Part shown: piece after piece, positions 1,658 through 63,690 of the stretch
How the letters are laid out: the number at the start of each line of letters is the position of its first letter
How positions within the stretch are numbered: the first letter of the stretch is position 1
Notes under the pieces: generated by a model
The model's database searches: none
The model's input: the letters and a program-made list of their open reading frames with translations, nothing else
Told to the model about the DNA's origin: nothing
Assembly (NCBI GenBank): GCA_035274425.1
Contig: DATEOC010000079.1
Span: forward strand, 8,030 to 72,029
DNA: 64,000 nucleotides
Direction: 5' to 3'
Source of the DNA: Chloroflexia bacterium
Lineage (GTDB): Bacteria > Chloroflexota > Chloroflexia > QHBQ01 > JADMIH01
Position numbers and translations under genes: made by a program

Positions 1658-1769
1658 TCCGTCGTCTATCGTCCGTCGTCTATCGTCCGTCTTCTGTCGT
1701 CTATCGTCCATCGTCCATCGTCCATCGTCCATCGTCCATCGTCTATCGTCTATCGTCTATCGTCTATCG
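1658..1769. repeat. Tandem heptamer array (CGTCYAT/CGTCCGT), about 16 units
   Basis: Direct reading: ...cgtcgtctatcgtccgtcgtctatcgtccgtcttctgtcgtctatcgtccatcgtccatcgtccatcgtccatcgtccatcgtctatcgtctatcgtctatcgtctatcg. Confidence 0.95.
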
Positions 1770-1848
1770 CCCACTTGCAACCCACCACAGCTTGACATAT
1801 AATCGGCTCAGAGAGGGTTACGCACATATAGAGAGGGGTACGTTAGCC

Positions 1849-2838
1849 ATGCCTAGACCCAAGCCGAAGGTAAAGACCGAGCAGGAAGTGGTGGAGAGCA
1901 AGCTGCAACAGACCTTGCCGGTGCAGGCTCCCCTGTTCGGCCTGAACAACCGTGGGGAGCTTACGCAGCCTGTAGCCGACATACCGGCCCTCACCCCTAC
2001 CTCCAGCCTGGACGTGGCGCGGTGGTGGTACAGGCGGCACCTTGAGCAGCAGCGCCGCCCCATCAACACGATAGACTCCTATATGTACGATCTATCCCTC
2101 TTCCAGGAGACCGTGGGGAACAAGACTGTAGACCGCATATCCCCCACCGACATCGCCAACTTCCTGGGGCAGGCTAACAACAAGTCCACCCGCAAGCGGC
2201 GGCTCACCTCTTTGCAAGGTATGTATCGCTACCTGGTAGACAAGGAGAAGGTGCTGACCAAGAACCCCGCCGATAGCTTTTTCCCCGACTACATCCCCCT
2301 CAAGACCCCCCAGACCTTATTCCCTCATGAGCAGGATGCGATTCTCGACGCTGCCCAGGAGGAGAACTCACGCACCTATTTGATAGCTTACCTGCTCATC
2401 AAGCTCGGCTTGACGCGTACGGAGTTGTTGGCCCTCAAAGTAGACCATATAGACATAGGGGACCCGGAGAGGCCGATAATCTACATCTATTACGAGGACA
2501 CCCGTTCGCAGAAGAAGGAGAGAAAGCTGTCAGCGGGTCTCGACTTCACCGAGGCCTATCAGCGATACCTGGAGGAGTACAAGCCGGTTTCAAGGATGTT
2601 CAACCTCCTGCCCCAGTCGATCAACAAGATCGTGGACCGCATAGCCGAGACCGCTGGCATCAACAAGATAGTCACCCCGCAGTCGTTACGCGACACCTTT
2701 GCGGTTGAGCAGGCCAAAGCGGGGGCAGATGAGAAGAAGCTGCTGGCGATACTCGGCCTTGCCCCCGACAGCCGCAATCGCAAGAGCGTGCAGCGCTACA
2801 TCAAGTTGGCCGCGCCACCCGTAGCTGGAGTTGTGTGA
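1849..2838 (+). CDS. Tyrosine-type recombinase/integrase (XerC/D-like) with atypical catalytic residues
   Basis: N-terminal SAM-like core-binding segment (INTIDSYMYDLSLFQETVG...RLTSLQGMYRYLV). Catalytic domain has GLTRTELLALKVDHID (Arg I), QSLRDTFA in place of HxLRH, and ILGL...QRYIKL in place of LGH...Y. ATG 1849 follows GAGAGGGG; the track start at 1792 is a TTG. Confidence 0.7.
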   Translation: MPRPKPKVKTEQEVVESKLQQTLPVQAPLFGLNNRGELTQPVADIPALTPTSSLDVARWWYRRHLEQQRRPINTIDSYMYDLSLFQETVGNKTVDRISPTDIANFLGQANNKSTRKRRLTSLQGMYRYLVDKEKVLTKNPADSFFPDYIPLKTPQTLFPHEQDAILDAAQEENSRTYLIAYLLIKLGLTRTELLALKVDHIDIGDPERPIIYIYYEDTRSQKKERKLSAGLDFTEAYQRYLEEYKPVSRMFNLLPQSINKIVDRIAETAGINKIVTPQSLRDTFAVEQAKAGADEKKLLAILGLAPDSRNRKSVQRYIKLAAPPVAGVV

Positions 2839-2839
2839 G

Positions 2840-2892
2840 ACGAAACGGTCCAAACGCAAAGACGCAAAGATCACAGAGGAATCGCAGAGGTT
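2840..2892. repeat. Short composite array (ACGCAAAG x2, then CACAGAGG/CGCAGAGG)
   Basis: gacgaaacggtccaaacgcaaagacgcaaagatcacagaggaatcgcagagg. The same unit types recur at 50844-50919. Confidence 0.8.
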
Positions 2893-2895
2893 TTA

Positions 2896-3369
2896 ATGGA
2901 TTCCCGACGCCCAACCCTTGATCCCCGACCCCTCTCCATCGTCGTCAACCATACCTTTCGCGCGCGCTACGCGGAGACCGATGCAATGGGCATTGTGCAT
3001 CACGCCGAGTACCTGGTGTGGATGGAGATGGGGCGCACCGAGTTCATGCGCCACTTCGGCTTCACCTACCGCGAGCTGGAGAAGATGGGCGTGCTGCTTC
3101 CCGTGCTTGAGGTAAGCGTGCATTACAAGCAGTCTGCGCGTTACGATGACGAGATAAGAGTCTCTACATGGGTGGAGGCGATGGACCGCGTGCGCCTCAA
3201 GCTGGCGTACAAGATGGAGCGGGTTGAGGACAATGCACTACTGATCGAGGCAAGCACTACCCACACGTACATGGGACCAGATGGGCGGTTGCTGCGCATA
3301 ACACATCATACGGAAGCCTGGAAGAGGCTCCAGGCTATGATTCTGCCAAAGGAGAACGACGCACGTTAG
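2896..3369 (+). CDS. Acyl-CoA thioesterase, YbgC/4HBT (hotdog) family
   Basis: HTFRARYAETDAMGIVHHAEYLVWMEMGRTEFMRHFGFTYRELEKMGVLLPVLEVSVHYKQSARYDDEI is a classic 4HBT-type motif. Confidence 0.75.
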   Translation: MDSRRPTLDPRPLSIVVNHTFRARYAETDAMGIVHHAEYLVWMEMGRTEFMRHFGFTYRELEKMGVLLPVLEVSVHYKQSARYDDEIRVSTWVEAMDRVRLKLAYKMERVEDNALLIEASTTHTYMGPDGRLLRITHHTEAWKRLQAMILPKENDAR

Positions 3370-3443
3370 CCTTCGATTGGCCGGTCCTATTATTGGGTAC
3401 GCATAATATGTATCAAAGGCACAACTCATACGTGAGGTGAAGC

Positions 3444-4145
3444 ATGAGCGGTGACGGTGAAAGAAAGAGTGGGGTCCAGAAACTCTTCACTGGGAGAGTT
3501 TCACCCACCACACGTGCAGCGATGGAGGCCGAATCCCGAAGCTGGATGATAAGGTGTCCTTACTGCGGCCACGAGCGATCTGTCTGGGAGACTGGAGGCG
3601 TTCGCTACAAGGCCGCCGGGAACTCCCGGCAGTTGCGGCGGTGTCCGCAGTGCGGGAAGCTGTCCTGGCACATAATATACCGGCGGGAGAATCAACAGAG
3701 CACAGACACTCCCCTTGCCCCTCTCCCCCTCGCGGATAGCCGCAGGCGCTGGCTATTGTGGGTCCTGGGCCTGGGGCTGCTGGGCACAGTCATCGCCGCC
3801 TTTGTCGCCGTCCTCCTATTCGTGATAGGCACACTCACGCAGCCAGTAGTCACTGCTGGGGACGCGTTCATGACGGCGCTGAAAACCGGCAATTACGCTG
3901 AAGCCTACGCTCTTTGCACGCCTGAGTTACAAAAGGAATTGGGAAGCGTGTCCGGCATGGCGACCTTGCTAGAACCCGACCAGCCCTCCCAGTGGAATTG
4001 GACGAACCGGAGCATCCGCAATGGTGTAGGCCGGCTGGATGGCTCCCTTACTTATGCCAACGGCAAAACAGGCACGGTGCACCTCGTGCTCAACCAGGTG
4101 GGCAACGACTGGAAAATAGTTAGCTTCCGCATGGACCCGACCTAA
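3444..4145 (+). CDS. Zinc-ribbon membrane protein with extracytoplasmic NTF2-like/DUF4878-like domain (hypothetical)
   Basis: CPYCGHE...CPQCGK zinc ribbon, one TM helix (WLLWVLGLGLLGTVIAAFVAVLLFVIG), then AGDAFMTALKTGNYAEAYALCTPELQKELGS. Confidence 0.5.
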   Translation: MSGDGERKSGVQKLFTGRVSPTTRAAMEAESRSWMIRCPYCGHERSVWETGGVRYKAAGNSRQLRRCPQCGKLSWHIIYRRENQQSTDTPLAPLPLADSRRRWLLWVLGLGLLGTVIAAFVAVLLFVIGTLTQPVVTAGDAFMTALKTGNYAEAYALCTPELQKELGSVSGMATLLEPDQPSQWNWTNRSIRNGVGRLDGSLTYANGKTGTVHLVLNQVGNDWKIVSFRMDPT

Positions 4146-4357
4146 AGAGTCTTACTCGCACCTCTCCCCGCAACGTGGAGGCCTGGGAGAAGCATAGTCT
4201 GTAGCTTCTCTCTGGATAGACTCTCCATCCTACTACACATAGAACTAAAGTCATGTGCAGACTTCCCACTTTTAGGCGATACCTGAGCATACCGGCACCT
4301 GATATAGTTGTGACATAACTTCGGAGCTATTTTGCTATATCATAGGGAAGGTGCTTC

Positions 4358-4948
4358 ATGCCTTATTGTGTCAACTGTGGAAGCAGTTACAGCGTTTCAG
4401 AAAAATTCTGTCATGACTGTGGGCAACGACTGAAGAAGACGCAACATCATACCCACCCTCAGTTACGGTACTCGACATCTCCACTGGGCAATAGTGCTTC
4501 TGCGGTCATAGCTACAGAAGTCATTGTTGATGCACTGCGTGAGGGAAGAGCAGAGGAGAGAGAAGAGCGCCGCAAAACTAGAAACTATAACCGAGCAATG
4601 CACGACTCGGACGAAAGTTTAGAATTATTCCTGAAGTGCGTCGCTATACTGGGTATTTTCCACGGAATGTCACTAATAGGCGCTAATTGGTGGCCGGTAT
4701 TGAATGGACCAATAGGTTATTTCTTAGTCGGCGGCGCATTCCTGAGTGCATTTGTGAAGATTATTATAGATGTAAGGCACGGCCATTCTTTCGGTAAGAG
4801 TCTGTTGGTTGTCACGCTCCTGGGGCTGCTGATATATGGTATGGAATATGGAATATTCTGGTACATAAAGAACCAGGTTATGGCACACCCAGAAACTTGG
4901 TTCCAACTCAAATTCCCTACCCCTACACCAACGGCACACCCCCAATAA
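4358..4948 (+). CDS. Zinc-ribbon domain membrane protein (hypothetical)
   Basis: N-terminal MPYCVNCGSSYSVSEKFCHDCGQRL, with several C-terminal TM helices. Local sequence is visibly more AT-rich than the flanks. Confidence 0.45.
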   Translation: MPYCVNCGSSYSVSEKFCHDCGQRLKKTQHHTHPQLRYSTSPLGNSASAVIATEVIVDALREGRAEEREERRKTRNYNRAMHDSDESLELFLKCVAILGIFHGMSLIGANWWPVLNGPIGYFLVGGAFLSAFVKIIIDVRHGHSFGKSLLVVTLLGLLIYGMEYGIFWYIKNQVMAHPETWFQLKFPTPTPTAHPQ

Positions 4949-4977
4949 GCAAGAACGGCTTCTGAGCAGCCGCTTTC

Positions 4978-5499
4978 TTATGCATAACTGAGATACCCAG
5001 GCACCCTATCCTCAAACTTCGCCATCTCCAACTCTACCGACAGAGGTACTTTGAGGAGGGAGGCTATGGGGGTCATGTGGTTGAAGAGCCGTATCTTGCG
5101 GTTGACTTCCTCGACGGCGGCGCGGTGGCGGGCGGAGGCACGCTGGTGCTGAGCCTTCAGCCTGGCTACCTCCTGACGCAGCCGGCGGATAGCGAAGGGG
5201 TCGCTGCCTAGCTCCTTCAGGTTCTCGCGCAGGCGGGTAAAGTGGCGGTCGGCGTCGTGGCGCAGCCTCTCAAGATCAGCTTCAATCTCCTGGCTCACCA
5301 CCATCCAGTCGGGGGCGAAGCCGCTGTTAGATAGCACCTTGAAGGCCGCGCGCATCTCCTCCGGCACGAAGGGGTTGTCCTCGTGCGTGAGGGGCTTACC
5401 CATGCCGGGGAGGTTGTCGAACTCCCCCGCGTCTATAGCTTCCTGTATGCGCCTCTCGCTGATGCGCTCCAGGCCGATGAGTATCTCGTCAGCGTCCAT
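4978..5499 (-). CDS. DUF1992 (DnaJ-homologue subfamily C28-like) protein
   Basis: ISERRIQEAIDAGEFDNLPGMGKPL...NPFVPEEMRAAFKVLSNSGFAPDWM is the characteristic DUF1992 motif. Confidence 0.7.
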   Translation of the reverse strand: MDADEILIGLERISERRIQEAIDAGEFDNLPGMGKPLTHEDNPFVPEEMRAAFKVLSNSGFAPDWMVVSQEIEADLERLRHDADRHFTRLRENLKELGSDPFAIRRLRQEVARLKAQHQRASARHRAAVEEVNRKIRLFNHMTPIASLLKVPLSVELEMAKFEDRVPGYLSYA

Positions 5500-5527
5500 A
5501 CCTCAATTATACCAGAAAGATTGTACA

Positions 5528-5571
5528 AATAATCACAAAACCGGCTCACAGAGCCGATTTTGTGATTATTT
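5528..5571 (-). terminator. Hairpin downstream of ftsK
   Basis: aaataatcacaaaaccggctc-aca-gagccgattttgtgattattt gives an approximately 20-bp stem with one mismatch, 18 nt after the ftsK stop. Confidence 0.55.
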
Positions 5572-5588
5572 CTGTTGAGGAAGAAGAG

Positions 5589-8198
5589 TTACGGTTCTTC
5601 GTATGGATCGGAATCGGTGGCGTCGAAGGCGCGGTGATCGGGCGCTCCCAGTAGCACTTCGCGGGGCTTGCCGCGATTCTCGTTGGTGGCGGGCGCGATA
5701 AGGCCCATCTCCTCCATCTGCTCCACCAGGCGGGCGGCACGGTTATACCCTACCCGCAGCTTGCGCTGAAGCATAGAGACAGAAACGTACTGGTGCTTCT
5801 TCACAAGCTCGATGGCTTGCTCAAGCATCTCGCTCTCGGCGTCGGGGTCGCCCGTGCCAAGCCAGTCGGGCATCGGCATCGGCTGGACCGCAGGCTCTAT
5901 ACCGTTGTCCGCCAACTCTTCCTCCGTAGGGAGCTGCTTGCGCCAGAAGTTGACTATCCTATCCGACTCGGCGTCCGACACGTATGTGCCCTGGATGCGC
6001 ACAGGCTTGCTCTCGTCGGAGGCGGTATAGAGCATGTCGCCCCGCCCCAGCAGCTTCTCCGCTCCGCTCCCATCCAGAATTACTTTGCTGTCCACCTGGG
6101 ATGTCACTGCGAATGCCGCACGCGCCGGGAAGTTGGCCTTGATCAGCCCCGTCACCACGTCCACCGACGGGCGTTGCGTGGCGACCACCAGGTGTATACC
6201 CGTAGCGCGGGCAAGCTGCGCAAGGCGGCACAACGAAGTCTCTACCTCCTCCGGCGCGGTGAGCATCAGGTCCGCAAGCTCGTCTATGATGATTACTATG
6301 TACGGAACATGCTCCATCTGGGCGTCGGGGTTGTCCTTAACGAAGTTGCGGTACTGCTCGATGTTGCGGAAGACCTTGTTGATCCCCTCCTTGTCCCTGG
6401 CACCTTTGGCGAAAAGCTTATAGCGACGCTCCATCTCCCACAGCGCCCACTTGAGCACCTCCACCGCCGTCAAAGGGCGCTCCCGGTCATTTTGCACTTT
6501 GGGTTTCTGACCCTGTGAGTGGTTAGAGTGGCCCGACTCTTTCTCCATACGGATGTCGGTGACTACGGGGCGGAGGAGATGGGGGATGCCGTTGAAGCCG
6601 GTAAGCTCAACGCGCTTGGGGTCTATCATCAACATGCGCAGGTCGTCGGGGGTGAATTGGAGGAGGAAGCCTATCACCAGGGAATTGAGGAAGACCGACT
6701 TGCCGCTACCCGTCGCGCCCGCCACCAGGAGGTGGGGCAGCTTCTCCATGCCCGTCACCACGGCGCGTCCATGCGTGTCCCTGCCGAGGGTAATTTTCAG
6801 CTTCGCTTTAGAATTGTAGAATTCCTCCGACTCCATGATACTGCGCAGGCCGACCACTTGGAGCGATACGTTCGGCACTTCGATACCGATGCGCGACTGG
6901 CCTGGTATGGGCGCTTCGATGCGTATGTCAGGGGCAGCGAGAGCGAGGGCAAGATTGCGGTCGAGGTTGGTGAACTTATTGACGTGGACTCCCACGCCCG
7001 GCTCGATGGCGAACTGGGTGACGGCAGGCCCGGTATTGACCTCGCGCACGGTCGCCTCCACCTTGAAAGACATCAACGTCTCTTCGATAGTCTTTATCTT
7101 CGCCTTGATGTCCGACTGGCTGACCTTGATCTCTCCGGTGTTCTCGAGGAGGGTGAGCGCGGGGAGGTTCCAGGTGTAGCCCAGGGGAGACATGACCTGT
7201 ATGGGAGGACTTTGGAATTTGGACTTTAGATTCTGGATGTTGATTATGGGAGAAGGCTTCTCCTTCCCTTTCACTGATGGAGAGGCAGGCGTAGCTTCGC
7301 CCAGGACGCTGACGGCCTCGGTGGGGAGAGAGTGGGAGTCGAGCGGGGTGCCGTCCTCGTTAGTGATTTCCAGGGTCGGGTGCATCGCGGTCTCGCCCAC
7401 GATGACATCCTCACCGTTGATGCGCACGGACTCGTGGCTCCTGCCACCCTGACCTGAGCGCTCCTTGAGCATCTGCGATACTTCACCACGCACTTTGTCC
7501 AGGGCCTGGCCCGCTGCACGGCTTGCCGCCAGCGTAGGGCGACCCACGCCGCGCACTACCTGCGCAAGCGATAACCCGAAGGCCAGCATGATGCCGAGCA
7601 CGATGAGGGCCAGCAGCACCACCATCGCGCCCAGCTTCGTCAGGTAGTCTGAGAGGAAAGTGGAGATAGCAAGGCCCAGGTAGCCACCTCCCTGCCCCAG
7701 GTCGGCTGCGCGCTGGCCGTTGGCGAAGAGATGCAAGAAGCCCATTACGCCCAGCAGCAAGATGAGCGAGCCGGCAGGCACAAGCGGTGAGAGCCACTTA
7801 GCGTCGAGCTTGGCACCGATGAGGAGTATGCACGCCCCCGCCATCATCACAACCGGCACGAGCCACGCTGCCAGGCCGAATAGCTGCGCCAGGAAACTCC
7901 CCATCGCACCCACCATGTTCTGAGCGCCCCCGTTCCACCCAACCAACCCAACGACGAAGAGCATCCCCACGACCAGCATCAAGAGCGCAACTATCTCCCG
8001 CCTCACGTGAGCAGGGAGTTTGAATGCGGAGTGCGGAGTGCGGAGTGCGGATTTAGGACTTTGAACTTTGGACTTTGGACCCTGAACCTTAGACTTTGCG
8101 CTTTGGACTTTGGGCTTCGCTTTAGAGCGGCCACCTTCAATCTTAGTCCACGTGGGAGGGGAGGACTTTGGGGCTTTTTTAGCGGTTGCGGAAGGCAT
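5589..8198 (-). CDS. ftsK: DNA translocase FtsK/SpoIIIE
   Basis: N-terminal TM helices, a Walker A motif (LLVAGATGSGKSV), IIIDELADLM, a QRPSVDVVTG motor domain, and a C-terminal gamma winged helix (VSVSMLQRKLRVGYNRAARLVEQMEEMG). ATG 8198 has GAGG about 9 nt upstream. The first ~60 aa are encoded by repeat arrays. Confidence 0.9.
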   Translation of the reverse strand: MPSATAKKAPKSSPPTWTKIEGGRSKAKPKVQSAKSKVQGPKSKVQSPKSALRTPHSAFKLPAHVRREIVALLMLVVGMLFVVGLVGWNGGAQNMVGAMGSFLAQLFGLAAWLVPVVMMAGACILLIGAKLDAKWLSPLVPAGSLILLLGVMGFLHLFANGQRAADLGQGGGYLGLAISTFLSDYLTKLGAMVVLLALIVLGIMLAFGLSLAQVVRGVGRPTLAASRAAGQALDKVRGEVSQMLKERSGQGGRSHESVRINGEDVIVGETAMHPTLEITNEDGTPLDSHSLPTEAVSVLGEATPASPSVKGKEKPSPIINIQNLKSKFQSPPIQVMSPLGYTWNLPALTLLENTGEIKVSQSDIKAKIKTIEETLMSFKVEATVREVNTGPAVTQFAIEPGVGVHVNKFTNLDRNLALALAAPDIRIEAPIPGQSRIGIEVPNVSLQVVGLRSIMESEEFYNSKAKLKITLGRDTHGRAVVTGMEKLPHLLVAGATGSGKSVFLNSLVIGFLLQFTPDDLRMLMIDPKRVELTGFNGIPHLLRPVVTDIRMEKESGHSNHSQGQKPKVQNDRERPLTAVEVLKWALWEMERRYKLFAKGARDKEGINKVFRNIEQYRNFVKDNPDAQMEHVPYIVIIIDELADLMLTAPEEVETSLCRLAQLARATGIHLVVATQRPSVDVVTGLIKANFPARAAFAVTSQVDSKVILDGSGAEKLLGRGDMLYTASDESKPVRIQGTYVSDAESDRIVNFWRKQLPTEEELADNGIEPAVQPMPMPDWLGTGDPDAESEMLEQAIELVKKHQYVSVSMLQRKLRVGYNRAARLVEQMEEMGLIAPATNENRGKPREVLLGAPDHRAFDATDSDPYEEP
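8024..8114. repeat. Heptamer (GTGCGGA x4) followed by an octamer (GGACTTTG/GAACTTTG) array, inside the ftsK 5' coding region
   Basis: atgcggagtgcggagtgcggagtgcgga...aggactttgaactttggactttggaccctgaaccttagactttgcgctttggactttggg. Confidence 0.9.
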
Positions 8199-8355
8199 GG
8201 TAATTTACCTCATGGATGCGTAATGCATCTCAGGCGTGAAACAGCACATATGTTTGGGTATAGATATTATATCACGAGGATGAGGTATGGGGAAAAGTGG
8301 TGGATTGGGGAGTGGTGAGAAATGAAGTTGATGGGTAAAATGGGGTGGTGCTGGG

Positions 8356-8390
8356 AACGTAAAACGTAATGCGTGATGCGTGATGCGTGA
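8356..8390. repeat. Heptamer array (AACGTAA, GCGTGAT x3)
   Basis: aacgtaaaacgtaatgcgtgatgcgtgatgcgtga. Confidence 0.9.
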
Positions 8391-8406
8391 AGTGTGGGGA
8401 GGTACA

Positions 8407-9450
8407 ATGAATTTGGACATGACTTTGACTGCGGAGCAAGCCTCGCGCTTCTCGCGCCTTGCATTGGAGGGAGTACGGCGGGAATACCCTAACAGCCCTG
8501 GGCACGTCCTCAATGGGCCGGAGGAGATGCAAAGCCCACGCAAGTTACACCCCGCCTTCTACGGGTGCTTCGATTGGCACTCTTCGGTCCATAGTCATTG
8601 GATGCTGGTGCGTCTGCTGCGCACACTGCCCAAACTGCCGGAAGCGAGCGAGATACGCTCCGCGCTGGCTGAGAATCTTACTGAAGAGAACTTGCTCACC
8701 GAAAAGGCATATCTCGAACAGCCGAACCGCCGCTCCTTCGAGCGTATGTATGGCTGGGCTTGGCTACTGAAGCTGGCCGAAGAACTACAGGCGTGGAACG
8801 ATCTGGACGGCAAGAAATGGTCGCGCAATCTGCAGCCCCTGGCTGATACCATCGTGCAACGCTACACGGACTTCCTGCCCAGGCAAACATACCCCATCCG
8901 CGTGGGCACGCACAGCAATACAGCCTTCGGCCTGACCTTCGCGCTAGACTATGCGCGAAGCGTAGGAGATAGAAAACTGGAAGAGCTAATAGTGAGGCGC
9001 ACCTATACCTATTTTTCAAAGGACAGAGATTGCCCGGCAGCATGGGAGCCGGGCGGAAATGATTTTCTCTCCCCCTGCCTTATAGAAGCTGACTTAATGC
9101 GCCGCATTCTCTTACCTGTGGAGTTCCGCTCCTGGGTAGGTCGATTCTTGCCGGGACTACGCAACCGTAAGCCACAGAAACTCTTCCGACCCGCCACAGT
9201 CGCTGACCGCACCGACCCCCAGATAGTACACCTCGACGGCCTGAACCTCAGCCGCGCCTGGTGTATGCTCGGTATAGCCTCCTCTTTTGCACCGGACGAC
9301 CCCTCTCACCGCGTGCTGACCAGGTCTGCTCAATCGCACGCGCAAGCCGCGCTGCCACACATTACCAGCGGAGACTACATGGGCGAGCATTGGCTGGCTT
9401 CGTTCGCCGTGTATATGCTTTCCACGCCTGTAACTTATAGTAATCGCTAG
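8407..9450 (+). CDS. DUF2891-family protein
   Basis: ASRFSRLALEGVRREYPNSPGHVLNGPEEMQSPRKLHPAFYGCFDWHSSVHSHWMLVRLL matches my recollection of the DUF2891 signature. ATG 8407 follows GGGGAGG. Confidence 0.55.
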   Translation: MNLDMTLTAEQASRFSRLALEGVRREYPNSPGHVLNGPEEMQSPRKLHPAFYGCFDWHSSVHSHWMLVRLLRTLPKLPEASEIRSALAENLTEENLLTEKAYLEQPNRRSFERMYGWAWLLKLAEELQAWNDLDGKKWSRNLQPLADTIVQRYTDFLPRQTYPIRVGTHSNTAFGLTFALDYARSVGDRKLEELIVRRTYTYFSKDRDCPAAWEPGGNDFLSPCLIEADLMRRILLPVEFRSWVGRFLPGLRNRKPQKLFRPATVADRTDPQIVHLDGLNLSRAWCMLGIASSFAPDDPSHRVLTRSAQSHAQAALPHITSGDYMGEHWLASFAVYMLSTPVTYSNR

Positions 9451-9490
9451 CTCTGTTTTAACCTCCATCCACCACCCCAATTAGGGAGTT

Positions 9491-9545
9491 TGAAAAGGAT
9501 AAAATGAAGGGTCGGCTGCGCCGACCCTTCATTTTATCCTTTTCA
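9491..9545 (+). terminator. Long perfect hairpin (GAAAAG...CGGC-TGC-GCCG...CTTTTC family), probable intrinsic terminator
   Basis: tgaaaaggataaaatgaagggtcggc-tgc-gccgacccttcattttatccttttca, a 26-bp perfect stem 41 nt after the DUF2891 stop. Confidence 0.7.
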
Positions 9546-9958
9546 AGAGGTTATAGGCGCGTTTGTATATCTGGTAAAAATTCGGGAGGTCTCATATTGC
9601 CCCTGAAGGGCCGAAACGAAATGTATTTATCTCACGTAAATATAGTCCCTAACTAATACGCGACCTTGCGGTTCTCTCTTGACATACTAAAGCCTCCTTT
9701 GGCTCAGGTGAGGGGTTCACAATGTATTCGCTTCCCTGATCCTGGGTGGGATAAGGTCAACACTTTCGTGTTATATATTTACCTCAGAATCAATGAGTGC
9801 AGAAATACTATACTTCACCCAGGTTAAGTCTCTTGGATTTCAACGCCTCAATAAACGTCTAAAATTATGGCTTTTCCTCGCATTTAGGTGGTACGAATCC
9901 TTGCGGATACGCTTATATAGGGGAGAGGGATCATTCACCCTCCTACTAGGAGGCCATT

Positions 9959-10831: not shown

Positions 10832-10860
10832 GTAGGGGCGTGCCAGCGGCACGCCCCTAC
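10832..10860. repeat. GTAGGGGC...GCCCCTAC palindrome, probable bidirectional terminator between convergent genes
   Basis: gtaggggcgtgcc-agc-ggcacgcccctac, a 13-bp perfect stem. A near-identical copy lies at 37041-37069. Confidence 0.8.
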
Positions 10861-10919: not shown

Positions 10920-12227
10920 TTACGGAAGGTTCTCGCACGCCACTCCATCATTATCACCATCCAGGCGATGCGGGTCTTGCTCAGGCCCACCGGCTGCGAT
11001 GAAGAAAGCCTGAGCTTCGGCTTGCGTGGCGAAGTCGGCGCAATCACGGTCTGGGCCGTTGGGATCGTAGCGCAGCCCGGTAGTGGCTGTTGGCTGAGAT
11101 GCCTGGGTAGCCGTAGGCGGCGAGCTGGTAGGGGTCAATTGCGGTTCCGGCGATGAGTGCGGTGTAGGAGAAGGAGCAGGCTGCATTGGGAGTGAGGTAG
11201 GCTGCGATGTAGTTGTAGGTGTAGGGGCGTAACGAATTGTAGGAGTTGGCATAGATGACGGCCCTGTGCCAACTCCTATGGCTGTGTTGGTAGGGATGGT
11301 AGCTGGTGATGGACGCTTTGTTGGCGCCGGCGCTGACACAGATGGTGTAGGTGAGCGCACAGGTGTAGGGTTTGGGCGAACAGTAGGAGATACCATGCTG
11401 GCGGTGGGACTCTTCACAGGCACAGTAGATGTTACAATGAGTTGAGTTGGCGAGGGAATAAACACTGTAGGAGAAGGTGGCATTTCCGTAGGGAGAGGCG
11501 CGCCAAAAGCGCCACATACTCCCCATAAACCACGCCCCTGGACCTGCGCATCGTGTTCTATAGTCAAGAAGCGGTCTTCATGCCTGGTATCGGGTGGAGA
11601 AATAGCGGCTTTAGCATAACCTCCAACCAACATAGCCTCATTGAGCATCTGCTTACCGGCGGGTAACTCCAGCCAAACGTAGCGCAGCAGTCTCCCGGCG
11701 CGGTCCATCTCTGATACGTCTCGTTCAAGCCACACCCGCCGACCCGACTCGTCCACCATCTTCTGCGCTTGCTCCGATGCCTCCCGCCCGAAGCATACAG
11801 GTTTTGGAGTAATGCCGGGAGCGTCCACGCCTGACAACCTGACTATCACCGCCCAACCATCTAACCCTACCTCTAACGTATCACCATCTACCACGCGAAT
11901 TACAATTGCTTCAACCAACGCGCTAGGAGGAGCGGTAGAGACCGAGGCTGCCGAGGTTGGCGATCTGGGTGTAGTCACTTTGGGGTCTTGGGCAGGCCGA
12001 GTTGCTGAGTACAGAGTAACTGTCGCAGTTGGGGATGCAGTAATTTGAGCAGATGGAATAGATTGCTTGAGCAGCAGAGGTATAACGACAGCACCTGTTC
12101 CAAGTACGAACAGCCCGACACCCAACAAAGCCCAGCGCGATTTCGCGCCTGCCATAGAGCGGGCGCGTGAGACGCGTGTGGCGGGAGGCTTCTCCCTGTG
12201 TGACTCGGATGGCTGTGCCATAGCCAC
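10920..12227 (-). CDS. Membrane-anchored/secreted thermonuclease (SNase) with P/T/S-rich linker and C-terminal Excalibur Ca-binding domain
   Basis: SNase core [12 protein letters not shown]...[10 protein letters not shown]...GRLLRYVWL...[12 protein letters not shown]...[10 protein letters not shown]. The C-terminus is [40 protein letters not shown]. There is an N-terminal TM helix. Confidence 0.85.
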
Positions 12228-14434: not shown

Positions 14435-14467
14435 AAGGGTCTCCTAGGGGTAATTACGAGTTATGAG

Positions 14468-19004: not shown

Positions 19005-19015
19005 TCTTTCTTCAT

Positions 19016-22640: not shown

Positions 22641-22652
22641 TCTCCTCCGCGT

Positions 22653-22675: not shown

Positions 22676-22686
22676 CTCTTCGATTT

Positions 22687-50951: not shown

Positions 50952-50980
50952 GTGGGGGCATGGCGACGCCATGCCCCTAC
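50952..50980. repeat. GTGGGGGC...GCCCCTAC palindrome (variant copy)
   Basis: gtgggggcatggcg-acgccatgcccctac. Confidence 0.75.
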
Positions 50981-51137
50981 GGGCTTGTGCAATGGTAGGG
51001 TGTGGGTGCCCCGATGACCGTAACTGGTTCCTGGTGGGTTTCCTCTCCTGTTTGTGGGAGGAGAGTGTGCGGGGCGGCGCTCCACCAGCGGGGATTGACC
51101 TGCGCCGCGACACTTTTGCTTGCCGAGTGCTGAGGAC

Positions 51138-51178
51138 TGAGGACTGAGGGGTCAGGGGTCAGGGGTCAGCATACGGCA
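51138..51178. repeat. Heptamer arrays CTGAGGA x2.5 then GGGTCAG x3
   Basis: gctgaggactgaggactgaggggtcaggggtcaggggtcag. Confidence 0.95.
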
Positions 51179-51519
51179 GGTAGGCCTATTGGGTTGTGAT
51201 GTAGTGTTGTGATTAGGCGCTCCTTTTGGGAGCGGAGTGATCCTTTCTGTCACTCTATATCGGGGCACCAGCGGGTTCCCTTTGGGTTGATGGCCCTCGC
51301 TACGGTCGCGGGGGTTGAGATGCATCTATTATATTAATCCCATTTTGGAGGCAAAATGGGACACGTTTTTGGGGCCAATTTGGGGGTATTTTGAAAATTG
51401 GTCAAAAATGGAGGTCAGGCAGTGGATGAAGATTAACAAGGTAACGAGGTAATGGAGGCAAATCGCGTAGGGGCGACCCCAAGGATCGATCTGGTAGCCA
51501 AGATGTAAGGTGGGTGAGG

Positions 51520-51550
51520 GTAGCAGGGCGACCACAAGGGTCGCCCCTAC
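51520..51550. repeat. GTAGCAGGGCGACC...GGTCGCCCCTAC palindrome (variant copy; a half-copy lies at 51467-51480)
   Basis: gtagcagggcgacc-acaag-ggtcgcccctac. Confidence 0.75.
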
Positions 51551-51568
51551 AATCTGTTACTCCGAGGG

Positions 51569-52303: not shown

Positions 52304-52382
52304 TACCTTGCTGCACCATTAGAACCTACTTTGAGAGCAGGATTATGAACACCAAAAGTTTTGAGTAACGAAGCATCCTTTT

Positions 52383-52477
52383 CCCTGTCATTCTGAGCGG
52401 AGCGAAGAATCTAGAAATCTATGAGTTTGACCTGTGGTGGAAATGTTAGATTCTTCGCTCCGCTCAGAATGACAGGG
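52383..52477. repeat. TGTCATTC...GAATGACA inverted-repeat element, copy 2
   Basis: ccctgtcattctgagcggagcgaagaatct-(35 nt)-agattcttcgctccgctcagaatgacaggg. Confidence 0.9.
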
Positions 52478-52537
52478 AGAGGAGTCCTGTTCTTACGTTC
52501 TTAAACAGGTTCTTATATTCACACCAGGAGGCAAGAG

Positions 52538-54285: not shown

Positions 54286-54338
54286 GGAAAAGCATCAAAG
54301 AGGTTTCGGCGGCGCCGAAACCTCTTTGATGCTTTTCC
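54286..54338 (+). terminator. Long perfect hairpin of the GAAAAG...CGGC-GGC-GCCG...CTTTTC family
   Basis: ggaaaagcatcaaagaggtttcggc-ggc-gccgaaacctctttgatgcttttcc. Confidence 0.7.
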
Positions 54339-57768: not shown

Positions 57769-57836
57769 GACGACAGACGAAGGACGAAAGACGAAGGAGC
57801 ATCTATTTTCGTCTTTCGTCCTTCGTCCTTCGTCCG
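57769..57836. repeat. Inverted pair of GACGAAR arrays (hairpin-forming) between aspS and the MFS gene
   Basis: gacgacagacgaaggacgaaagacgaagga-gcatctat-tttcgtctttcgtccttcgtccttcgtccg. Confidence 0.9.
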
Positions 57837-59197: not shown

Positions 59198-59240
59198 CGT
59201 CTGTCGTCACGCATCACGTTTCACGTTTCACGTTTCACGC
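59198..59240. repeat. Heptamer array (CGTCTGT, CGTCACG, CATCACG, TTTCACG x3) in the aspS 5' UTR
   Basis: cgtctgtcgtcacgcatcacgtttcacgtttcacgtttcacgc. Confidence 0.9.
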
Positions 59241-59270: not shown

Positions 59271-59562
59271 TTAAATAAAATACCCCTTCGCCATGCGGAC
59301 GAGGGGGCGCTCGTGGTGCCACCGCACTTTGCTGCCACTCGCTTGTCGAGCCACAGCCTCAAGCCCAATAACGGAGGCAACCCGTCAAGTCTTACTAAGG
59401 TCAATTGCCGCATCATACATCCGTCGTCCGTCGTCCAGCAACCAACCTTTTCTTACCTGCGCTCCGGAGGGTCTTCGCGGGTTCTGGGTGCTGCCATCTC
59501 AGCGCCGGCAGCTCTCTGATACCGAGGTTAGCTCGCTACTCTTCTCCATCACAGCTTTCGTA
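59271..59562 (-). promoter_or_regulatory. T-box riboswitch leader with Asp (GAC) specifier
   Basis: Minus-strand features: a purine-rich Stem-I base (GUGAUGGAGAAGAGUAGC), the AGAGAG element, and specifier context GCGAA-GAC-C (GAC at 59473-59471). The T-box sequence is AAAGUGCGGUGGCACCACGAG (59330-59311), whose UGGC fits a G73 discriminator. The terminator is CCCCUCG...CGAAGGGG followed by UAUUUUAUUU. Confidence 0.8.
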
Positions 59563-59597: not shown

Positions 59598-59676
59598 TCG
59601 GGCTATGGAAGTAAGAAGGTGTTGTTGAGTAGCGATAAGGAAGTTGAAGTCTCGCTTTACGAAGCACATCTTTCTT

Positions 59677-59756
59677 TGTCATTCCGAGCGCAGTGAGGAA
59701 TCTCCGAGCTTGCCAGGTGGAGGCATTTTTAGATTCCTCACTCCGTTCGGAATGAC
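59677..59756. repeat. TGTCATTC...GAATGACA inverted-repeat element, copy 3
   Basis: tgtcattccgagcgcagtgaggaatct-(27 nt)-agattcctcactccgttcggaatgaca. Confidence 0.9.
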
Positions 59757-59824
59757 ACTCTTTTTACTTTCGTTGTTACCCACCCTTTAAGAGTCATCAG
59801 TGACAAGGCTGAACCAGGGGCTAT

Positions 59825-60911: not shown

Positions 60912-60960
60912 CGAAACGCGCACTGTAGAATAAGCCTTACCATCCAATCACAACAAACTA

Positions 60961-61045
60961 TGCGCACTCTGCGTCTCTGCGGTGAATAAAGGGTAAACCA
61001 TTAAAGAACCTTGGCGCTCTTGGTAATCTTGGCGTCTTGGCGTTT
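60961..61045. repeat. Composite array: CTCTGCG heptamers ending GGTGAA, then CTTGGCG-type units
   Basis: tgcgcactctgcgtctctgcggtgaa...cttggcgctcttggtaatcttggcgtcttggcgttt. Confidence 0.85.
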
Positions 61046-62275: not shown

Positions 62276-62276
62276 T

Positions 62277-62312
62277 GTGGAGTGCGGAGTGCGGAGTGCG
62301 GAGTGCGGAATG
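62277..62312. repeat. Heptamer array GAGTGCG x4.5
   Basis: gtggagtgcggagtgcggagtgcggagtgcggaatg. Confidence 0.95.
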
Positions 62313-62364
62313 ATTTTGAACGGAGGAGTGTAGAATTAGGCGAATAGGGTTGGGGGATATTCGA

Positions 62365-62721
62365 ATGAAGAACGAGAACCTTAAGGCTCGCACTAAGGGA
62401 TATGCGTTACGGATAATTCGCCTCGTTGGGACTTTATCGAAAGACCGCACCGTAGATGTTCTCGCCAGGCAGTTACTTCGTGCCGGAACTTCAGTAGGAG
62501 CCAATTATAGAGCCGCTTGCCGCGCCAAATCCACCGCCGATTTTATTGCAAAGATGGGCATAGTAGAGGAAGAAGCAGACGAGTCCCTATACTGGATGGA
62601 ATTACTGATTGACGGAGATTTCGTTCCAGAAGCACGTTTGACGGAGCTAATGCAGGAGGGCAACGAGATTATAGCTATTGTCGTTGCCTCAATCCGAGCC
62701 GCAAGAAACGCAAAGGCATGA
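62365..62721 (+). CDS. Four-helix-bundle protein (23S rRNA intervening-sequence protein family)
   Basis: ARTKGYALRIIRLVGTLSKDRTVDVLARQLLRAGTSVGANYRAACRAKSTADFIAKMGIVEEEADESLYWMELL is the family signature. The stop overlaps the rsmA ATG (ATGA). Confidence 0.8.
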   Translation: MKNENLKARTKGYALRIIRLVGTLSKDRTVDVLARQLLRAGTSVGANYRAACRAKSTADFIAKMGIVEEEADESLYWMELLIDGDFVPEARLTELMQEGNEIIAIVVASIRAARNAKA

Positions 62722-63638
62722 TCCGGCATTCAACAGTCAAAAACACTCCGCACTCCGCAGGTTCTTGGGCTACGCCCAATTCAGGCACTCCGCACTCCCC
62801 GAAGAAGAGCCTGGGCCAGCATTTCCTCAAGGACCGCTCGGTGCCGCCGAGGATCGTGGAAGGCGCGGGAGTTGAGGCGGGGGATTGCATAGTGGAGGTG
62901 GGGCCGGGGCTTGGGGTGCTGACGGAGGAGATAGCCCGTAAGCTCGACCCTGAGCGCGGCGGGAAGTTGGTGGCGGTGGAACTCGATAGCACCCTGCTGC
63001 CGGTGCTGGAGGAGCGATTCGGGGATAGCGCCCACGTCAGCTTCGTTCATGCGGACGTGCTCGATATGCCGCCTCAAGAGTTGGCGGGTGAGCGAGCGTA
63101 CAAGGTGGTGGCTAACCTCCCTTATTACATCACCTCAGCGGTGCTGCGGCACTTCCTTGAGGCTGAGAAGAAACCGCAGTCCCTGACGGTGATGGTGCAG
63201 CGTGAGGTCGCGGAGCGCATGGTGGCGAAGCCGCCGGAGATGAGTCTGCTGGCTGTGGCCGTGCAGTTCTATGGGAAGCCTAAAGTGCTCTTTCGAGTAC
63301 CGCCTGGTGCGTTCAAGCCGCCGCCGAAGGTCGACTCCGCGGTTGTACGGATTGACGTGTACGCCTCTGGTGAGAGGCCGGTCCCCGTTGGGAGTGAGGA
63401 AGGATTCTTCCGGGTAGTGAGGGCAGGCTTCGGTCAGAAGCGTAAGCAGCTTGGGAATACGCTGGCGACGGGGCTGGAACTGCCAAAAGAGAGCGTAGCC
63501 GGTCGCCTTATAGAAGCGGGCATACAGCCATCCCGAAGGGCAGAAACGCTGTCACTTGAGGAGTGGGGGAGAGTCAACGAAACATTGGTCCAAAGTTCAA
63601 GGTTCAAAGTCCAAAGTCACTTGAACCTTGAACCTTGA
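62718..63638 (+). CDS. rsmA: 16S rRNA (adenine1518/1519-N6)-dimethyltransferase
   Basis: KKSLGQHFLKDRSV...VEVGPGLGVLTEEIA...VANLPYYITS...PPKVDSAVVRI. Repeat arrays encode part of the N-terminal ~28 aa and the last ~17 aa. Confidence 0.9.
   Translation: MIRHSTVKNTPHSAGSWATPNSGTPHSPKKSLGQHFLKDRSVPPRIVEGAGVEAGDCIVEVGPGLGVLTEEIARKLDPERGGKLVAVELDSTLLPVLEERFGDSAHVSFVHADVLDMPPQELAGERAYKVVANLPYYITSAVLRHFLEAEKKPQSLTVMVQREVAERMVAKPPEMSLLAVAVQFYGKPKVLFRVPPGAFKPPPKVDSAVVRIDVYASGERPVPVGSEEGFFRVVRAGFGQKRKQLGNTLATGLELPKESVAGRLIEAGIQPSRRAETLSLEEWGRVNETLVQSSRFKVQSHLNLEP
62744..62800. repeat. CACTCCG heptamers (reverse complement of the 62277 array) in two blocks inside the rsmA 5' coding region
   Basis: cactccgcactccgca (62744-62759) and gcactccgcactcccc (62785-62800). 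Confidence 0.85.
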
Positions 63639-63690
63639 ACCTTGAACCTTGAACCTTGAACCTTGAACCTTGAACTTTGAACCTTAAACT
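63588..63690. repeat. Octamer arrays CAAAGTYC x4 followed by the inverse unit GAACCTTG x8-9
   Basis: gtccaaagttcaaggttcaaagtccaaagtcacttgaaccttgaaccttgaaccttgaaccttgaaccttgaaccttgaactttgaaccttaaac. Confidence 0.95.

Follow-up and report, generated by a model that had tools for sequence, protein, structure and literature searches.

Tandem Arrays of Seven-Nucleotide Units in the Intergenic DNA of an Uncultured Chloroflexia Bacterium

Introduction

The STRR heptamers, reportedly described by Mazel et al. in 1990 from heterocyst-forming cyanobacteria, are 7-nt units repeated in tandem at many non-coding loci. STRR arrays also lie within cyanobacterial RNase P RNA, a placement that has its counterpart here in the Stem II loop of a T-box leader. 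In this work we analyse head-to-tail arrays of 7-nt units in a stretch of 64,000 nucleotides (the window; positions 8,030 to 72,029 of contig DATEOC010000079.1, assembly GCA_035274425.1) assigned to a Chloroflexia bacterium. An earlier, sequence-only reading of this stretch had proposed a family of 7-nt and 8-nt arrays at almost every gene boundary, with STRR as the closest described analogue. Coordinates are those of the window unless another locus is named.

Heptanucleotides are, according to Mrázek (2007) as summarised in two later papers (PMC4679880, PMC4692102), the commonest class of long simple-sequence repeat (SSR) in most genomes, a predominance possibly due to an interaction of the polymerase with a length of 7 nt. 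Mori et al. (SPADE, bioRxiv 309039) found tandem heptamers to be the top intergenic repeats across many prokaryotes and had no clue to their function. In the set of Subirana and Messeguer (2019; PMC6749651) Chloroflexus aurantiacus has the most satellites, 22 of them from (GATAGRA)n. GGGAATC arrays, inverted pairs included, were described in Xanthomonas, where they occupy the same gene intervals in two species with different lengths, and G-rich heptamers (GGGGAYT) were described in Nostoc PCC 7120 (Rehm 2015, PMC4692102). TAACTGA arrays occur in Beggiatoaceae, cyanobacteria and Bacteroidetes, with cold-shock proteins suggested as possible readers (MacGregor 2015, PMC4679880), and a Nostoc preprint (bioRxiv 2022.06.06.494920) describes effects on a reporter when a TTTTGAA array is deleted.

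Results

Repeat Period

Tandem Repeats Finder returned about 60 rows for the window, and the strong ones were nearly all of period 7 or a multiple of it. An exact-periodicity scan found arrays solely at periods 7 and 14, and a mismatch-tolerant scan gave 24 segments (733 nt) at period 7 and 0 or 1 at each of the other periods between 4 and 12. In the 64 kb, 29 exact runs of period 7 reach a length of 16 nt or more, far above the mean of 0.29 and the maximum of 2 found in 100 dinucleotide-preserving shuffles of the window. Runs of that length at periods 5, 6, 8 and 9 number 1, 1, 2 and 1, where about 0.2 are expected, and are at chance level. The arrays are therefore real, highly non-random and made of heptamers only, and the earlier view that they are not ordinary low complexity is supported. 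By Tandem Repeats Finder and the exact-run scans, tandem arrays are present at essentially all of the places where they had first been reported, with a density of about 4 to 5 heptamer arrays per 10 kb. The head-to-tail 7-nt unit and its excess over other unit lengths are those of intergenic heptanucleotide SSRs.

As a hold-out, flanking sequence was fetched after the hypotheses had been formed (9.6 kb after the window and 8 kb before it), giving an extended contig of 82 kb in total; coordinates marked L088 refer to the flank beyond the window. The flanks hold 8 or 9 further heptamer arrays, among them (GGACGAC/GGACGAT) beside (TCACGTT)3.7, an AGGAGTC/TCCTGAC hairpin, a GAGTAGC pair, TTTTGAA/AAAATTC and (AGAAGTT)2.4.

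The proposal of a joint 7-nt/8-nt family is not supported: the phenomenon is strictly one of 7 nt, and the octamer family was dropped, as neither the exact nor the approximate scans show an excess at period 8. Four of the five supposed octamers are heptamers read out of phase, GAACCTTG/CAAAGTTC being CTTGAAC, GGACTTTG GGACTTT, AGTCAGAA AGAAGTC and GACGAAAG GACGAAA/GACGAAG. The fifth, ACGCAAAG, is the one genuine 8-mer and forms part of a single, unrelated composite element treated below; CTCTGCG, which had been listed as a heptamer, is the reverse strand of the period-8 unit CGCAGAGN. The exclusion of CRISPR was correct. The units are contiguous and 7 nt long, with no spacers and no repeat-spacer periodicity, and none of the arrays has the 20-50-nt repeats with unique spacers of similar size that characterize CRISPR.

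Source and Assembly

The closest named relatives of this DNA are metagenome-assembled genomes (MAGs) of Chloroflexia and Herpetosiphonaceae, not heterocyst-forming cyanobacteria. UvrB shares 82-83% identity with proteins from MAGs that carry the label 'Chloroflexia bacterium', and the aspartyl-tRNA synthetase is 83-85% identical to metagenome proteins and 74% identical to that of a Herpetosiphonaceae MAG, with MAGs of Chloroflexia, Roseiflexaceae and Thermomicrobiales as its next-best matches. The host is an uncultured Chloroflexia bacterium; the G+C content of the window is 57%.

Two MEGAHIT contigs from ENA assembly ERZ27257050 (52,723 and 128,076 bp) match the window with 100% identity and overlap each other by exactly 141 nt at 44554-44694, within the largest array cluster; the joined contig measures 180,658 bp (52,723 + 128,076 - 141). 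Synteny with relatives gave no confirmation of the join at 44554-44694. Logan contigs from run SRR5195144 match the window, arrays included, wherever they overlap it, and they stop within arrays at 1743, 8050, 24796 and 59236, some of these ends lying in arrays of 26-27 nt. Both the join inside an array cluster and the contig ends in arrays would be in keeping with an artefact of short-read metagenome assembly; they may also hint at copy-number polymorphism within the population. However, no array reaches the length of the 141-nt k-mer, two assemblers give identical arrays, and the same kind of array is found in syntenic relatives from other samples. Similar arrays also lie on a 5.9-Mb contig of Ca. 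Leptofilum proximum (L030), whose 'tig' name suggests a long-read assembly, and finished genomes in the literature contain such arrays. Because the two assemblers agree, the arrays fall below the k-mer length, and the relatives and L030 carry similar arrays, it is very unlikely that their existence is an artefact, to the point that we give this explanation next to no weight; copy numbers are given as assembled only.

A separate observation concerns the GC skew, which shifts from about 0 to values between +0.08 and +0.18 from about 46 kb on, near the contig join. One 2-kb bin beyond about 46 kb has a skew of -0.015.

Position Relative to Genes

Gene positions were taken from the gene calls attached to the source contigs. 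The intergenic 11.8% of the window carries 81% of the array bases, and the other array bases fall in the first or last few codons of called open reading frames (ORFs), namely the N-termini of FtsK and of a GDP-mannose-dehydratase-like (GMD-like) protein and both ends of RsmA. This concentration in non-coding DNA is that of intergenic heptanucleotide SSRs, and it agrees with the earlier placement of the arrays between genes or at gene termini. The phrase 'almost every gene boundary' was an overstatement, since 17 of 50 boundaries carry an array when the spacer listing is counted by hand; for spacers of at least 40 nt the figure is 15 of 35. RsmA has 306 aa here and 278 aa in a relative. Its homology covers residue 23 up to a point 10 residues short of the stop, from which it follows that both extensions are array-encoded. 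As called, the ORFs of RsmA, FtsK and the GMD-like gene are all lengthened by heptamer arrays.

Two RNA leaders were recognized by Rfam, a T-box leader at 59292-59561 (-) and a SAM-I riboswitch at 36782-36899 (-); no Rfam family matched the arrays. One array lies in the mtnA leader, past the terminator hairpin and T-run of the riboswitch and 70 nt ahead of the start codon. Since they are located in the T-box and mtnA leaders, these arrays are transcribed, and they sit at places that tolerate extra nucleotides. A publicly called 83-aa ORF over the SAM riboswitch, at 36706-36957 (-), is almost certainly spurious.

A larger sample consisted of 820 kb of other loci, to which we applied a simple gene model based on ORFs; for the called genes of the window this model recovers the correct strands. 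Here 89 of 346 arrays lie in a gene interior, though about 80% of the sequence is interior. Against a background of 416 co-directional, 108 convergent and 118 divergent spacers, divergent spacers hold 14 arrays where about 36 are expected and convergent spacers hold 46 where 33 are expected. Orientation relative to co-directional genes is neutral, both for CACGTTT arrays (27 against 23 among the matches listed) and for the full set, where sense purine-rich and sense pyrimidine-rich arrays number 37 against 40 and 35 against 24. The lack of an orientation bias relative to transcription fits an origin at the DNA level. Such a bias had been entertained, as 10 of 11 unpaired CGTC-type arrays in the window are purine-rich in the sense strand; the hold-out flank contradicted it, as did the larger sample with its 37 against 40, and it was rejected.

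Unit Families and Register

The units fall into families whose members differ by single changes, and the genome has at least 15 of them. One family is TCGTC+YN, with six variants (CGTCCAT, CGTCTAT, CGTCTGT, CGTCCGT, CGTCCTT and CGTCTTT), and another is TCACG+NN, with CACGTTT and ATCACGC and with CGCGTTT as a near relative. Further families are GTTCAAG/GTTCAAA/GTCCAAA, GGAGTGC and AGAAGTC/AGAGGTC/AGGGGTC/AGGAGTC. The same units occur at unlinked loci in both orientations, as had been reported. Single copies of the heptamers are not over-represented relative to composition, and the idea that dispersed single units serve as binding sites was abandoned on that count.

At four loci, adjacent arrays of different units share one 7-nt register and are joined by hybrid units. 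In the first 60 codons of the FtsK ORF (8025-8117), (TGCGGAG)3.9 is followed in one register by about nine GGACTTT-like units, with the junction AAAGTCC / TAAATCC / GCACTCC; this 93-nt array keeps the frame and lies behind a good GAGG ribosome-binding site. A convergent spacer is filled at 44438-44610 by (GGACGAC)5.9, in-register (AGAAGTC)6.1, (TCACGTT)2.6 and (TCTGTCG/TCTATCG)8.6, the first and last arrays being mutually inverted and the junction GGACGAT / AGAGGTC / AGAAGTC falling within 44438-44522. Within a 904-nt spacer, (CTGAGGA)2.9 runs in register into (AGGGGTC)3.3 through CTGAGGA / CTGAGGG / GTCAGGG (51130-51169). At 63588-63689, over the RsmA stop and up to the ispE start, (GTTCAAR/GTCCAAA)4.4 passes through GTCCAAA / GTCACTT / GAACCTT into in-register inverted (CTTGAAC)10. 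The period also extends beyond the arrays themselves. Non-array sequence within 40 nt of an array has a lag-7 identity of 0.351, compared with about 0.26 at other lags (738 positions), and intergenic DNA farther from arrays has no lag-7 signal.

Turnover among Relatives

Two metagenome contigs (L211 and L212), with 83-85% identity in the aspartyl-tRNA synthetase, are syntenic with the window over 45-63 kb. In the Stem II loop of the T-box leader the units are GGACGAC in the window, (ACGCAAT)2.7 in L211 and degenerate ACGCAGA/ACGTAGT in L212. The interval from the T-box terminator to the Shine-Dalgarno sequence holds an array in the window and none in L211 or L212. Before rsmA, L212 has (AGTCCAA)3 and CGTCGTCCGTCGTCC in 37 nt, and the window has (GGAGTGC)4.4, an inserted PF05635 gene and inverted (GCACTCC) units. 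The spacer after the synthetase gene contains a GTAGGGGC...GCCCCTAC palindrome in L211 and a GACGAAR hairpin in the window. L211 also reuses its own unit, ACGCAAT, at the 3' end of its NAPRTase gene. In the Herpetosiphonaceae MAG (L213, 74% identity) there are zero arrays in 21 kb. Array length and sequence thus differ between close relatives, as in intergenic heptanucleotide SSRs generally. From the differing or absent arrays at orthologous sites, it follows that arrays are quickly gained, lost and re-written, that some positions are hot spots, and that each genome prefers its own units. The suggestion of an active generating or maintaining mechanism is upheld in the limited sense of fast, in-register turnover and no further.

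In L211, the 84% relative, a low-G+C insertion (positions 1-9700) separates the HDAC gene from the T-box leader. It carries genes for Rep_1, HNH, a tyrosine integrase and HTH_17 and has the look of a plasmid or phage-like element that has integrated; the equivalent in the window is a 654-nt spacer only.

Inverted Pairs and Hairpins

About a third of the arrays form inverted pairs, and these fold far better than shuffled sequence. Between two SIMPL genes, (GGACGAA/AGACGAA)4 - 9 nt - (CGTCCTT)2.6 forms a 20-bp hairpin (45569-45624; -36 kcal/mol, z -7.1). Between the aspartyl-tRNA synthetase stop and the MFS start, (GACGAAR)4 - 12 nt - (YTTCGTC)4 forms another (57769-57835; -46 kcal/mol, z -6.4). 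The pair at 63588-63689 gives -32 kcal/mol (z -5.7) and a pair in the flank (L088 16170-16223) -48 kcal/mol (z -9.2). Four single arrays folded no better than shuffles (z -0.7 to -1.4), and a mixed spacer with two unrelated arrays (24759-24855) gave a z of -2.4. The GACGAAR hairpin occurs in three near-identical forms in the 82 kb; the third, upstream of the window, has a perfect 36-bp stem that mirrors the order of the variant units (AAG, AAA, AAA, AAG in one arm and CTT, TTT, TTT, CTT in the other). Because the order is mirrored exactly, the arms would have been copied as a block and not expanded independently. In another pair the 25-bp stem takes in non-array flanks.

The pairs have a polarity. 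Among the matches listed for a metagenome search described below, an inverted partner lies no more than 200 nt away from 47 of the 120 CACGTTT arrays, and 44 of those 47 are arranged as (CGTGAAA)n - loop - (TTTCACG)n. Overall, the purine-rich arm is the 5' arm in 60 of 63 inverted pairs, on either strand, and for units other than the query in 24 of 27. Ordinary hairpins of the extended contig lean the same way (17 against 7). As this polarity matches that of bidirectional terminators built as A-tract, stem and T-tract, we infer that the paired arrays descend from, or are shaped like, 3'-end hairpins. The inverted pairs are not enriched in any spacer type, convergent ones included, and their contexts follow the background; enrichment after convergent genes had been considered and was not seen.

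The terminator scan reported no array hairpin, yet it did report classical terminators of the long A-stem-T type at 48280 and 55280. The tails of the array hairpins read CAGUAAUG and GGCGUUGC, with no U-tail, and a role as intrinsic terminators, which had been among the functions first proposed, is therefore unsupported. Elsewhere in the window, four perfect bidirectional terminator hairpins of 25-29 bp with A- and T-tract flanks lie at 9490-9546, 40418-40472, 48272-48332 and 54286-54338. They look like one family rather than independent terminators, since all close on CGGC-NNN-GCCG at the loop.

One inverted pair brackets a gene. Its upstream arm is (GGAGTGC)4.4 at 62279-62309, and its downstream arm, (CACTCCG)2.3 with (GCACTCC)2 at 62744-62798, falls within the N-terminal extension of the RsmA ORF. 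The gene at 62365-62721, between hyp398 and rsmA, belongs to PF05635 (23S rRNA intervening-sequence protein, Avd-like). It ends in an ATGA overlap with the start of rsmA, and L212 lacks the gene at this place and has only the 37-nt heptamer spacer. A PF05635 gene inside inverted heptamers is reminiscent of rRNA intervening sequences and the stem on either side of them; a tblastn search of all the fetched loci gave no homologue of the gene, which precludes a generalisation.

Recurrence across Lineages

Arrays are nearly absent from a set of 80 uvrB neighbourhoods taken from genomes of GTDB species; most Chloroflexota loci have none, while L030 and L032 do carry them. The exceptions include Ca. 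Leptofilum proximum (L030; Anaerolineae), with three CACGTTT and two TTCACCG arrays, and a second Anaerolineae MAG with a TCACGCA array. As a route to orthologous comparison the uvrB set failed, for in the 80 loci there was no synteny past uvrB with the closest MAGs. In the same set, the Megasphaera intestinihominis neighbourhood (L052) has 4 heptamer arrays in 22 kb.

A search of JGI metagenomes with (TCACGTT)3 gave at least 120 matches, on contigs of 39% to 71% G+C. In 684 kb of the matches listed there are 309 period-7 arrays, compared with 48, 39 and 26 for periods 8, 6 and 9. The commonest companion of CACGTTT among them is ATCACGC (9 loci), and CGTCTAT, CGTCCAT and CGTCCTT accompany it in three loci, one of which is a Chloroflexia contig as judged by SdhA. 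Exact units shared with the repertoire of the window number 15, where composition-preserving shuffles give 3.2 (maximum 8 in 300). One CACGTTT locus is a Candidatus Poribacteria contig, with a PriA 100% identical to an NCBI Poribacteria record and with several inverted heptamer pairs. In IMG/VR, (TCACGTT)3 occurs in 16 stretches and (GGACGAC)3 in 10, and the contigs with (TCACGTT)3 hold 72 heptamer arrays in 139 kb. Some of the 'viral' contigs in IMG/VR (L218, L224, L227 and L230; about 60% G+C) are very dense in arrays and have units of their own (AAAGCAG, AAATCCG, AACATCC).

Other Array Loci in the Window

The longest cluster (1657-1773) lies between the PemK toxin and integrase genes and consists of alternating GTCCGTC/GTCTATC, then (ATCGTCC)5.9, then (ATCGTCT)4.6. 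Tandem Repeats Finder reports higher-order periods of 14 and 21 nt in it, and its RNA fold (z -1.4) is no better than that of shuffles. The genes around it, at 976-2838, comprise an HTH_17/PemK toxin-antitoxin pair beside a tyrosine integrase; a HepT/MNT (nucleotidyltransferase) pair lies at 16208-16718.

In a divergent spacer, 23 nt upstream of the DUF2891 start, (AACGTAA)2 and (ATGCGTG)3.1 occupy 8356-8390. (TTACGAG/TTATGAG)4 at 14454-14481 runs across one gene's stop and the spacer ahead of the RNase J gene. At 19102-19160, (TCTATCG)3.3 is followed by degenerate TCACG-type units that extend into the GMD-like gene at its 3' end. Inside the ORF of that gene, codons 7-15 hold (GCGTGAT)3.9 (20119-20145, 27 nt), and this ORF has no alternative start codon downstream of the array. 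Close by, (TCCGTCG)3.3 at 20179-20201 makes up most of a 42-nt spacer.

The 97-nt spacer between SBP_bac_5 and MBL-fold genes is filled at 24767-24855 by (AGTTCAA)5.4, (TCGCGTT)3.3 and degenerate CGTC units. It belongs to a region (20208-36899, -) that forms a methionine/SAM-cycle neighbourhood, with MetK, AdoHcy hydrolase, a PfkB kinase and MtnA behind the SAM-I riboswitch; four paralogous 800-aa SBP_bac_5 genes, of about 75-78% DNA identity, are interleaved in it. The mtnA 5' leader array is (TCGTCTA)2.7 with (TCGTCCG)2 (36692-36722). Of the two T-box leader arrays, CGTCTGT units with (TCACGTT)3.7, in the sense strand (AAACGTG)3.7, occupy 59198-59239 between the terminator and the Shine-Dalgarno sequence of the aspartyl-tRNA synthetase gene. 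The terminal loop of Stem II carries a 47-nt insertion, and the second array, (TCCGTCG)2.4 or in sense (GGACGAC)2.4 (59420-59436), is located there. CACGTTT had been reported next to CGTCNNT at three loci. The pairing is clear at 44533-44610 and 59198-59240 and exists only in degenerate form at 19102-19160; the adjacency recurs at 24807-24855 and in the flank (L088 13106-13203).

The Composite and Other Dispersed Repeats

The true 8-mer belongs to a composite that is separate from the heptamer family and has at least seven copies in the 82 kb. Its order is (ACGCAAAG or CGCCAAGA)n, a ATTCTTTGGGG-like linker, TTCACCGCAGAGG and (CGCAGAGN)n. The fullest copy is (ACGCAAAG)4 - ATTCTTTGGGG - TTCACCGCAGAGG(CGCRGAGG)2 at 50844-50919 (+), and the copy at 2852-2892 (+), (ACGCAAAG)n ... 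(CRCAGAGG)n, lies directly ahead of a start codon; neither locus has a heptamer array. The succession of ACGCAAAG and TTCACCGCAGAG that had been noticed at these two places is real at both. Further copies lie at 19006-19064 (+), 22641-22686 (-) and 60955-61043 (-), and in the flank beyond the window at L088 11832-11925 (+) and 20480-20519 (-). Three copies end a few bases before a start codon, and the GAGG of the composite could therefore act as a Shine-Dalgarno sequence. No Rfam family matches the composite. Remnants of it (ACGCAAAGAC) are seen in L211 and L212.

Two other kinds of intergenic repeat were noted. REP-like palindromes of the form GTAGGGGCGTGCC-NNN-GGCACGCCCCTAC, with variants, lie at 10832-10860, 37041-37069, 50955-50977 and 51465-51555 and in L211 at about 11360-11440. 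A dispersed family of palindromic elements of about 100 nt is built on GTCATTCTGAGCG.../AGTGAGGAATCT...AGATTCCTCACT, and the GTCATTCTGAGCG-type palindromes occupy 32435-32510, 52382-52478 and 59675-59765, L088 at about 20340-20400 and L212 at about 11415-11440.

Discussion

The arrays are heptanucleotide simple-sequence (micro-satellite) arrays of the STRR-like class, and any explanation starts from their period, location, turnover, register, hairpin stability and polarity. The account that we favour, at slightly better than an even chance, is that they are slippage-born heptamer satellites with a fast turnover, tolerated only outside constrained sequence, of which the hairpin-forming subset may act on RNA. 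Arrays would arise and be remodelled in place by slipped-strand mispairing or unequal exchange, in 7-nt steps. Polymerase slippage has also been put forward in the literature on the intergenic heptamer excess. A point-mutated unit within an array could be re-amplified, and because of such re-amplification one spacer would come to hold a continuous 7-nt lattice of blocks with different units. Now and then a whole array would be copied to an inverted partner by intra-strand template switching, giving perfect hairpins that mirror the variant units. Selection would confine arrays to places where a 7-nt insertion is harmless (spacers, extreme ORF ends, and variable loops and linkers of RNA leaders) and would clear them from gene interiors and divergent promoter spacers. 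Most single arrays are probably inert and unstructured as DNA and RNA spacers. Paired arrays would form very stable stem-loops in transcripts of either strand and may, like REP elements, have a role at 3' ends, in processing or in stabilisation.

Several points weigh against this account. Slippage is an inference and not an observation, and the same holds for template switching and for any function. Pure neutral slippage predicts neither the recurrence of units at unlinked loci and in other phyla, where CACGTTT arrays are found in Anaerolineae, Poribacteria, at least 120 metagenome contigs and IMG/VR contigs, nor the purine-arm-first polarity of 60 of 63 pairs. It also does not predict that the T-box leader loop keeps an array while its unit is replaced. 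The hairpins lack a U-tail, which leaves the terminator role unsupported, and in the 120 metagenome loci some contexts may be mislabelled, as the gene model applied to them is crude and based on ORFs. The recurrence of units across lineages and the arm polarity, which slippage does not explain, keep open a function through a reader protein or through RNA structure.

A reader protein would bind the arrays with about 7 nt per subunit, as single-stranded RNA or DNA or as duplex DNA. Candidates are cold-shock-domain/OB-fold proteins, and ribbon-helix-helix dimers of the omega (pSM19035) type that polymerise on heptads. The omega operators of pSM19035 consist of 7-10 consecutive WATCACW heptads at partition and copy-control promoters, with one ribbon-helix-helix dimer per heptad. 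The omega heptad WATCACW resembles the ATCACGC found here, and the preferred heptamer of CspB, GTCTTTG/T, resembles GTCTTTC; AATCACA has no tandem occurrence in the 82 kb. The limited vocabulary would then represent the recognition cores TCACG and TCGTC with two free positions each, in line with the restricted set of units sharing these 5-nt cores (six variants of TCGTC+YN and several of TCACG+NN). The identical units in distant lineages, the array kept in the T-box Stem II loop of three relatives and the unstructured single arrays, as a single-strand binder would need, also speak for a reader. Binding of heptamers by cold-shock proteins has been raised before (MacGregor 2015, PMC4679880), and in the Nostoc preprint deletion of a heptamer array alters reporter expression and an unknown binding partner is postulated. 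However, at least 15 unit families would require many readers or one very tolerant reader, the neutral orientation relative to transcription argues against one acting on RNA, and single units are not over-represented. Moreover, units are replaced at orthologous sites, close relatives have no arrays at the same genes, and divergent promoter spacers are depleted of arrays, not enriched. We consider a reader unlikely on balance. A wider proposal, of a conserved system with a small unit vocabulary common to Chloroflexota classes, Poribacteria and other phyla, a fixed 7-nt register and purine-arm-first pairs for about a third of the arrays, read by one factor of 7-nt footprint that acts on 3'-end formation or processing of transcripts or on local chromosome structure, seems to us a doubtful one. 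If it were true, the 7-nt period would reflect this footprint and would not stem from the replicative polymerase.

Alternatively, the arrays in general, or perhaps only the hairpin pairs and the recurrent multi-array combinations, might be small elements that are mobile or spread by recombination like MITE, REP or BIME elements. Copying between loci would account for the presence of the same units at many sites. CGTC-type and TCACG-type arrays are neighbours at five or six loci here, and again in L186, the GACGAAR hairpin is present in three near-identical copies, and one inverted pair brackets a PF05635 gene that is missing from a syntenic relative. Arrays also occur on IMG/VR contigs, and the heptamer satellites of Chloroflexus have 'probably transposed' according to Subirana and Messeguer (PMC6749651). 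But no conserved flanks, terminal repeats or target duplications were seen by eye around same-unit arrays at the printed loci of the 82 kb, and no transposase accompanies them; each locus has its own copy numbers and neighbours, and the in-register junctions and decayed flanks indicate local growth. Mobility is rather improbable as the general explanation. Contingency loci, in which 7-nt changes in copy number switch genes by frameshift or by promoter or leader spacing, are a still poorer fit, and we regard phase variation as very improbable. In FtsK, the GMD-like gene and RsmA some arrays do fall at the 5' coding end, where gain or loss of a single unit would change the frame, and others lie between leader elements and start codons. 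Yet the genes are housekeeping ones (ftsK, rsmA, aspartyl-tRNA synthetase, mtnA) rather than genes for surface or restriction functions. Most arrays lie downstream of genes or between co-directional genes, and the bacterium, an environmental member of the Chloroflexia, is no host-adapted pathogen.

The strict register, the replacement of units at conserved sites, the units shared across phyla, the purine-arm-first polarity and the depletion of divergent spacers turn vague ideas about such arrays into checkable rules. In a limited search of the literature we found no description of register continuity, arm polarity or cross-phylum sharing of units. On the practical side, arrays break short-read assemblies and mislead gene callers, as with the N- and C-terminal extensions of RsmA, the spurious ORF over the SAM riboswitch and peptide tails encoded by heptamers. 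Their insertion in riboswitch and T-box leaders is relevant to the annotation of Chloroflexota MAGs.

STRR, named at the start as the nearest described system, is apt as to type, both being tandem 7-nt arrays of several families at many loci, in both orientations, in non-coding DNA and with no known function, and apt also as to placement in variable RNA loops. The units and the host differ. STRR1-3 units (CCCCAGT, TTGGTCA, CAACAGT) are nowhere in tandem in the 82 kb, the hosts are cyanobacteria there and Chloroflexota here, and the present units are richer in G+C and in CG, in a genome of 57% G+C. Paired arrays can be likened to the enterobacterial REP/BIME-type palindromes, which protect upstream mRNA or serve as processing sites. 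In both cases stable extragenic hairpins seem to stand after stops and between co-transcribed genes and lack a U-tail; here, in contrast, the stems are made of tandem heptamers with several pairing registers and no family consensus, and only about a third of arrays are paired.

The heptamers of Xanthomonas, Nostoc and Beggiatoaceae share with ours an intergenic location, often near start or stop codons, and the occupation of the same gene intervals with differing length and sequence. The TTTTGAA unit of Nostoc is itself arrayed in this contig (L088 12524-12550). Those studies deal with one unit each, G-quadruplex potential is inapplicable to most units here, and Beggiatoaceae arrays point toward the downstream start codon, whereas ours have no orientation bias. 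The Chloroflexus (GATAGRA)n satellites are scattered heptamers of the same class, and their unit is one base from GATAGAC (equivalent to CGTCTAT) found here. A single dominant heptamer was described there, compared with at least 15 unit families in the present genome, and its authors favoured transposition, whereas the evidence here favours local growth.

The phenomenon is less new than had been supposed, for an intergenic excess of heptamers has been published for many prokaryotes, Chloroflexus aurantiacus among them. With the general prokaryotic heptamers the present arrays share the over-representation of period 7 among repeats of 5-11 nt, the intergenic location, the patchy phylogenetic distribution and the variation between close relatives. 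Nothing essential differs; the window is a dense example, and a rich new instance of a known, unexplained class.

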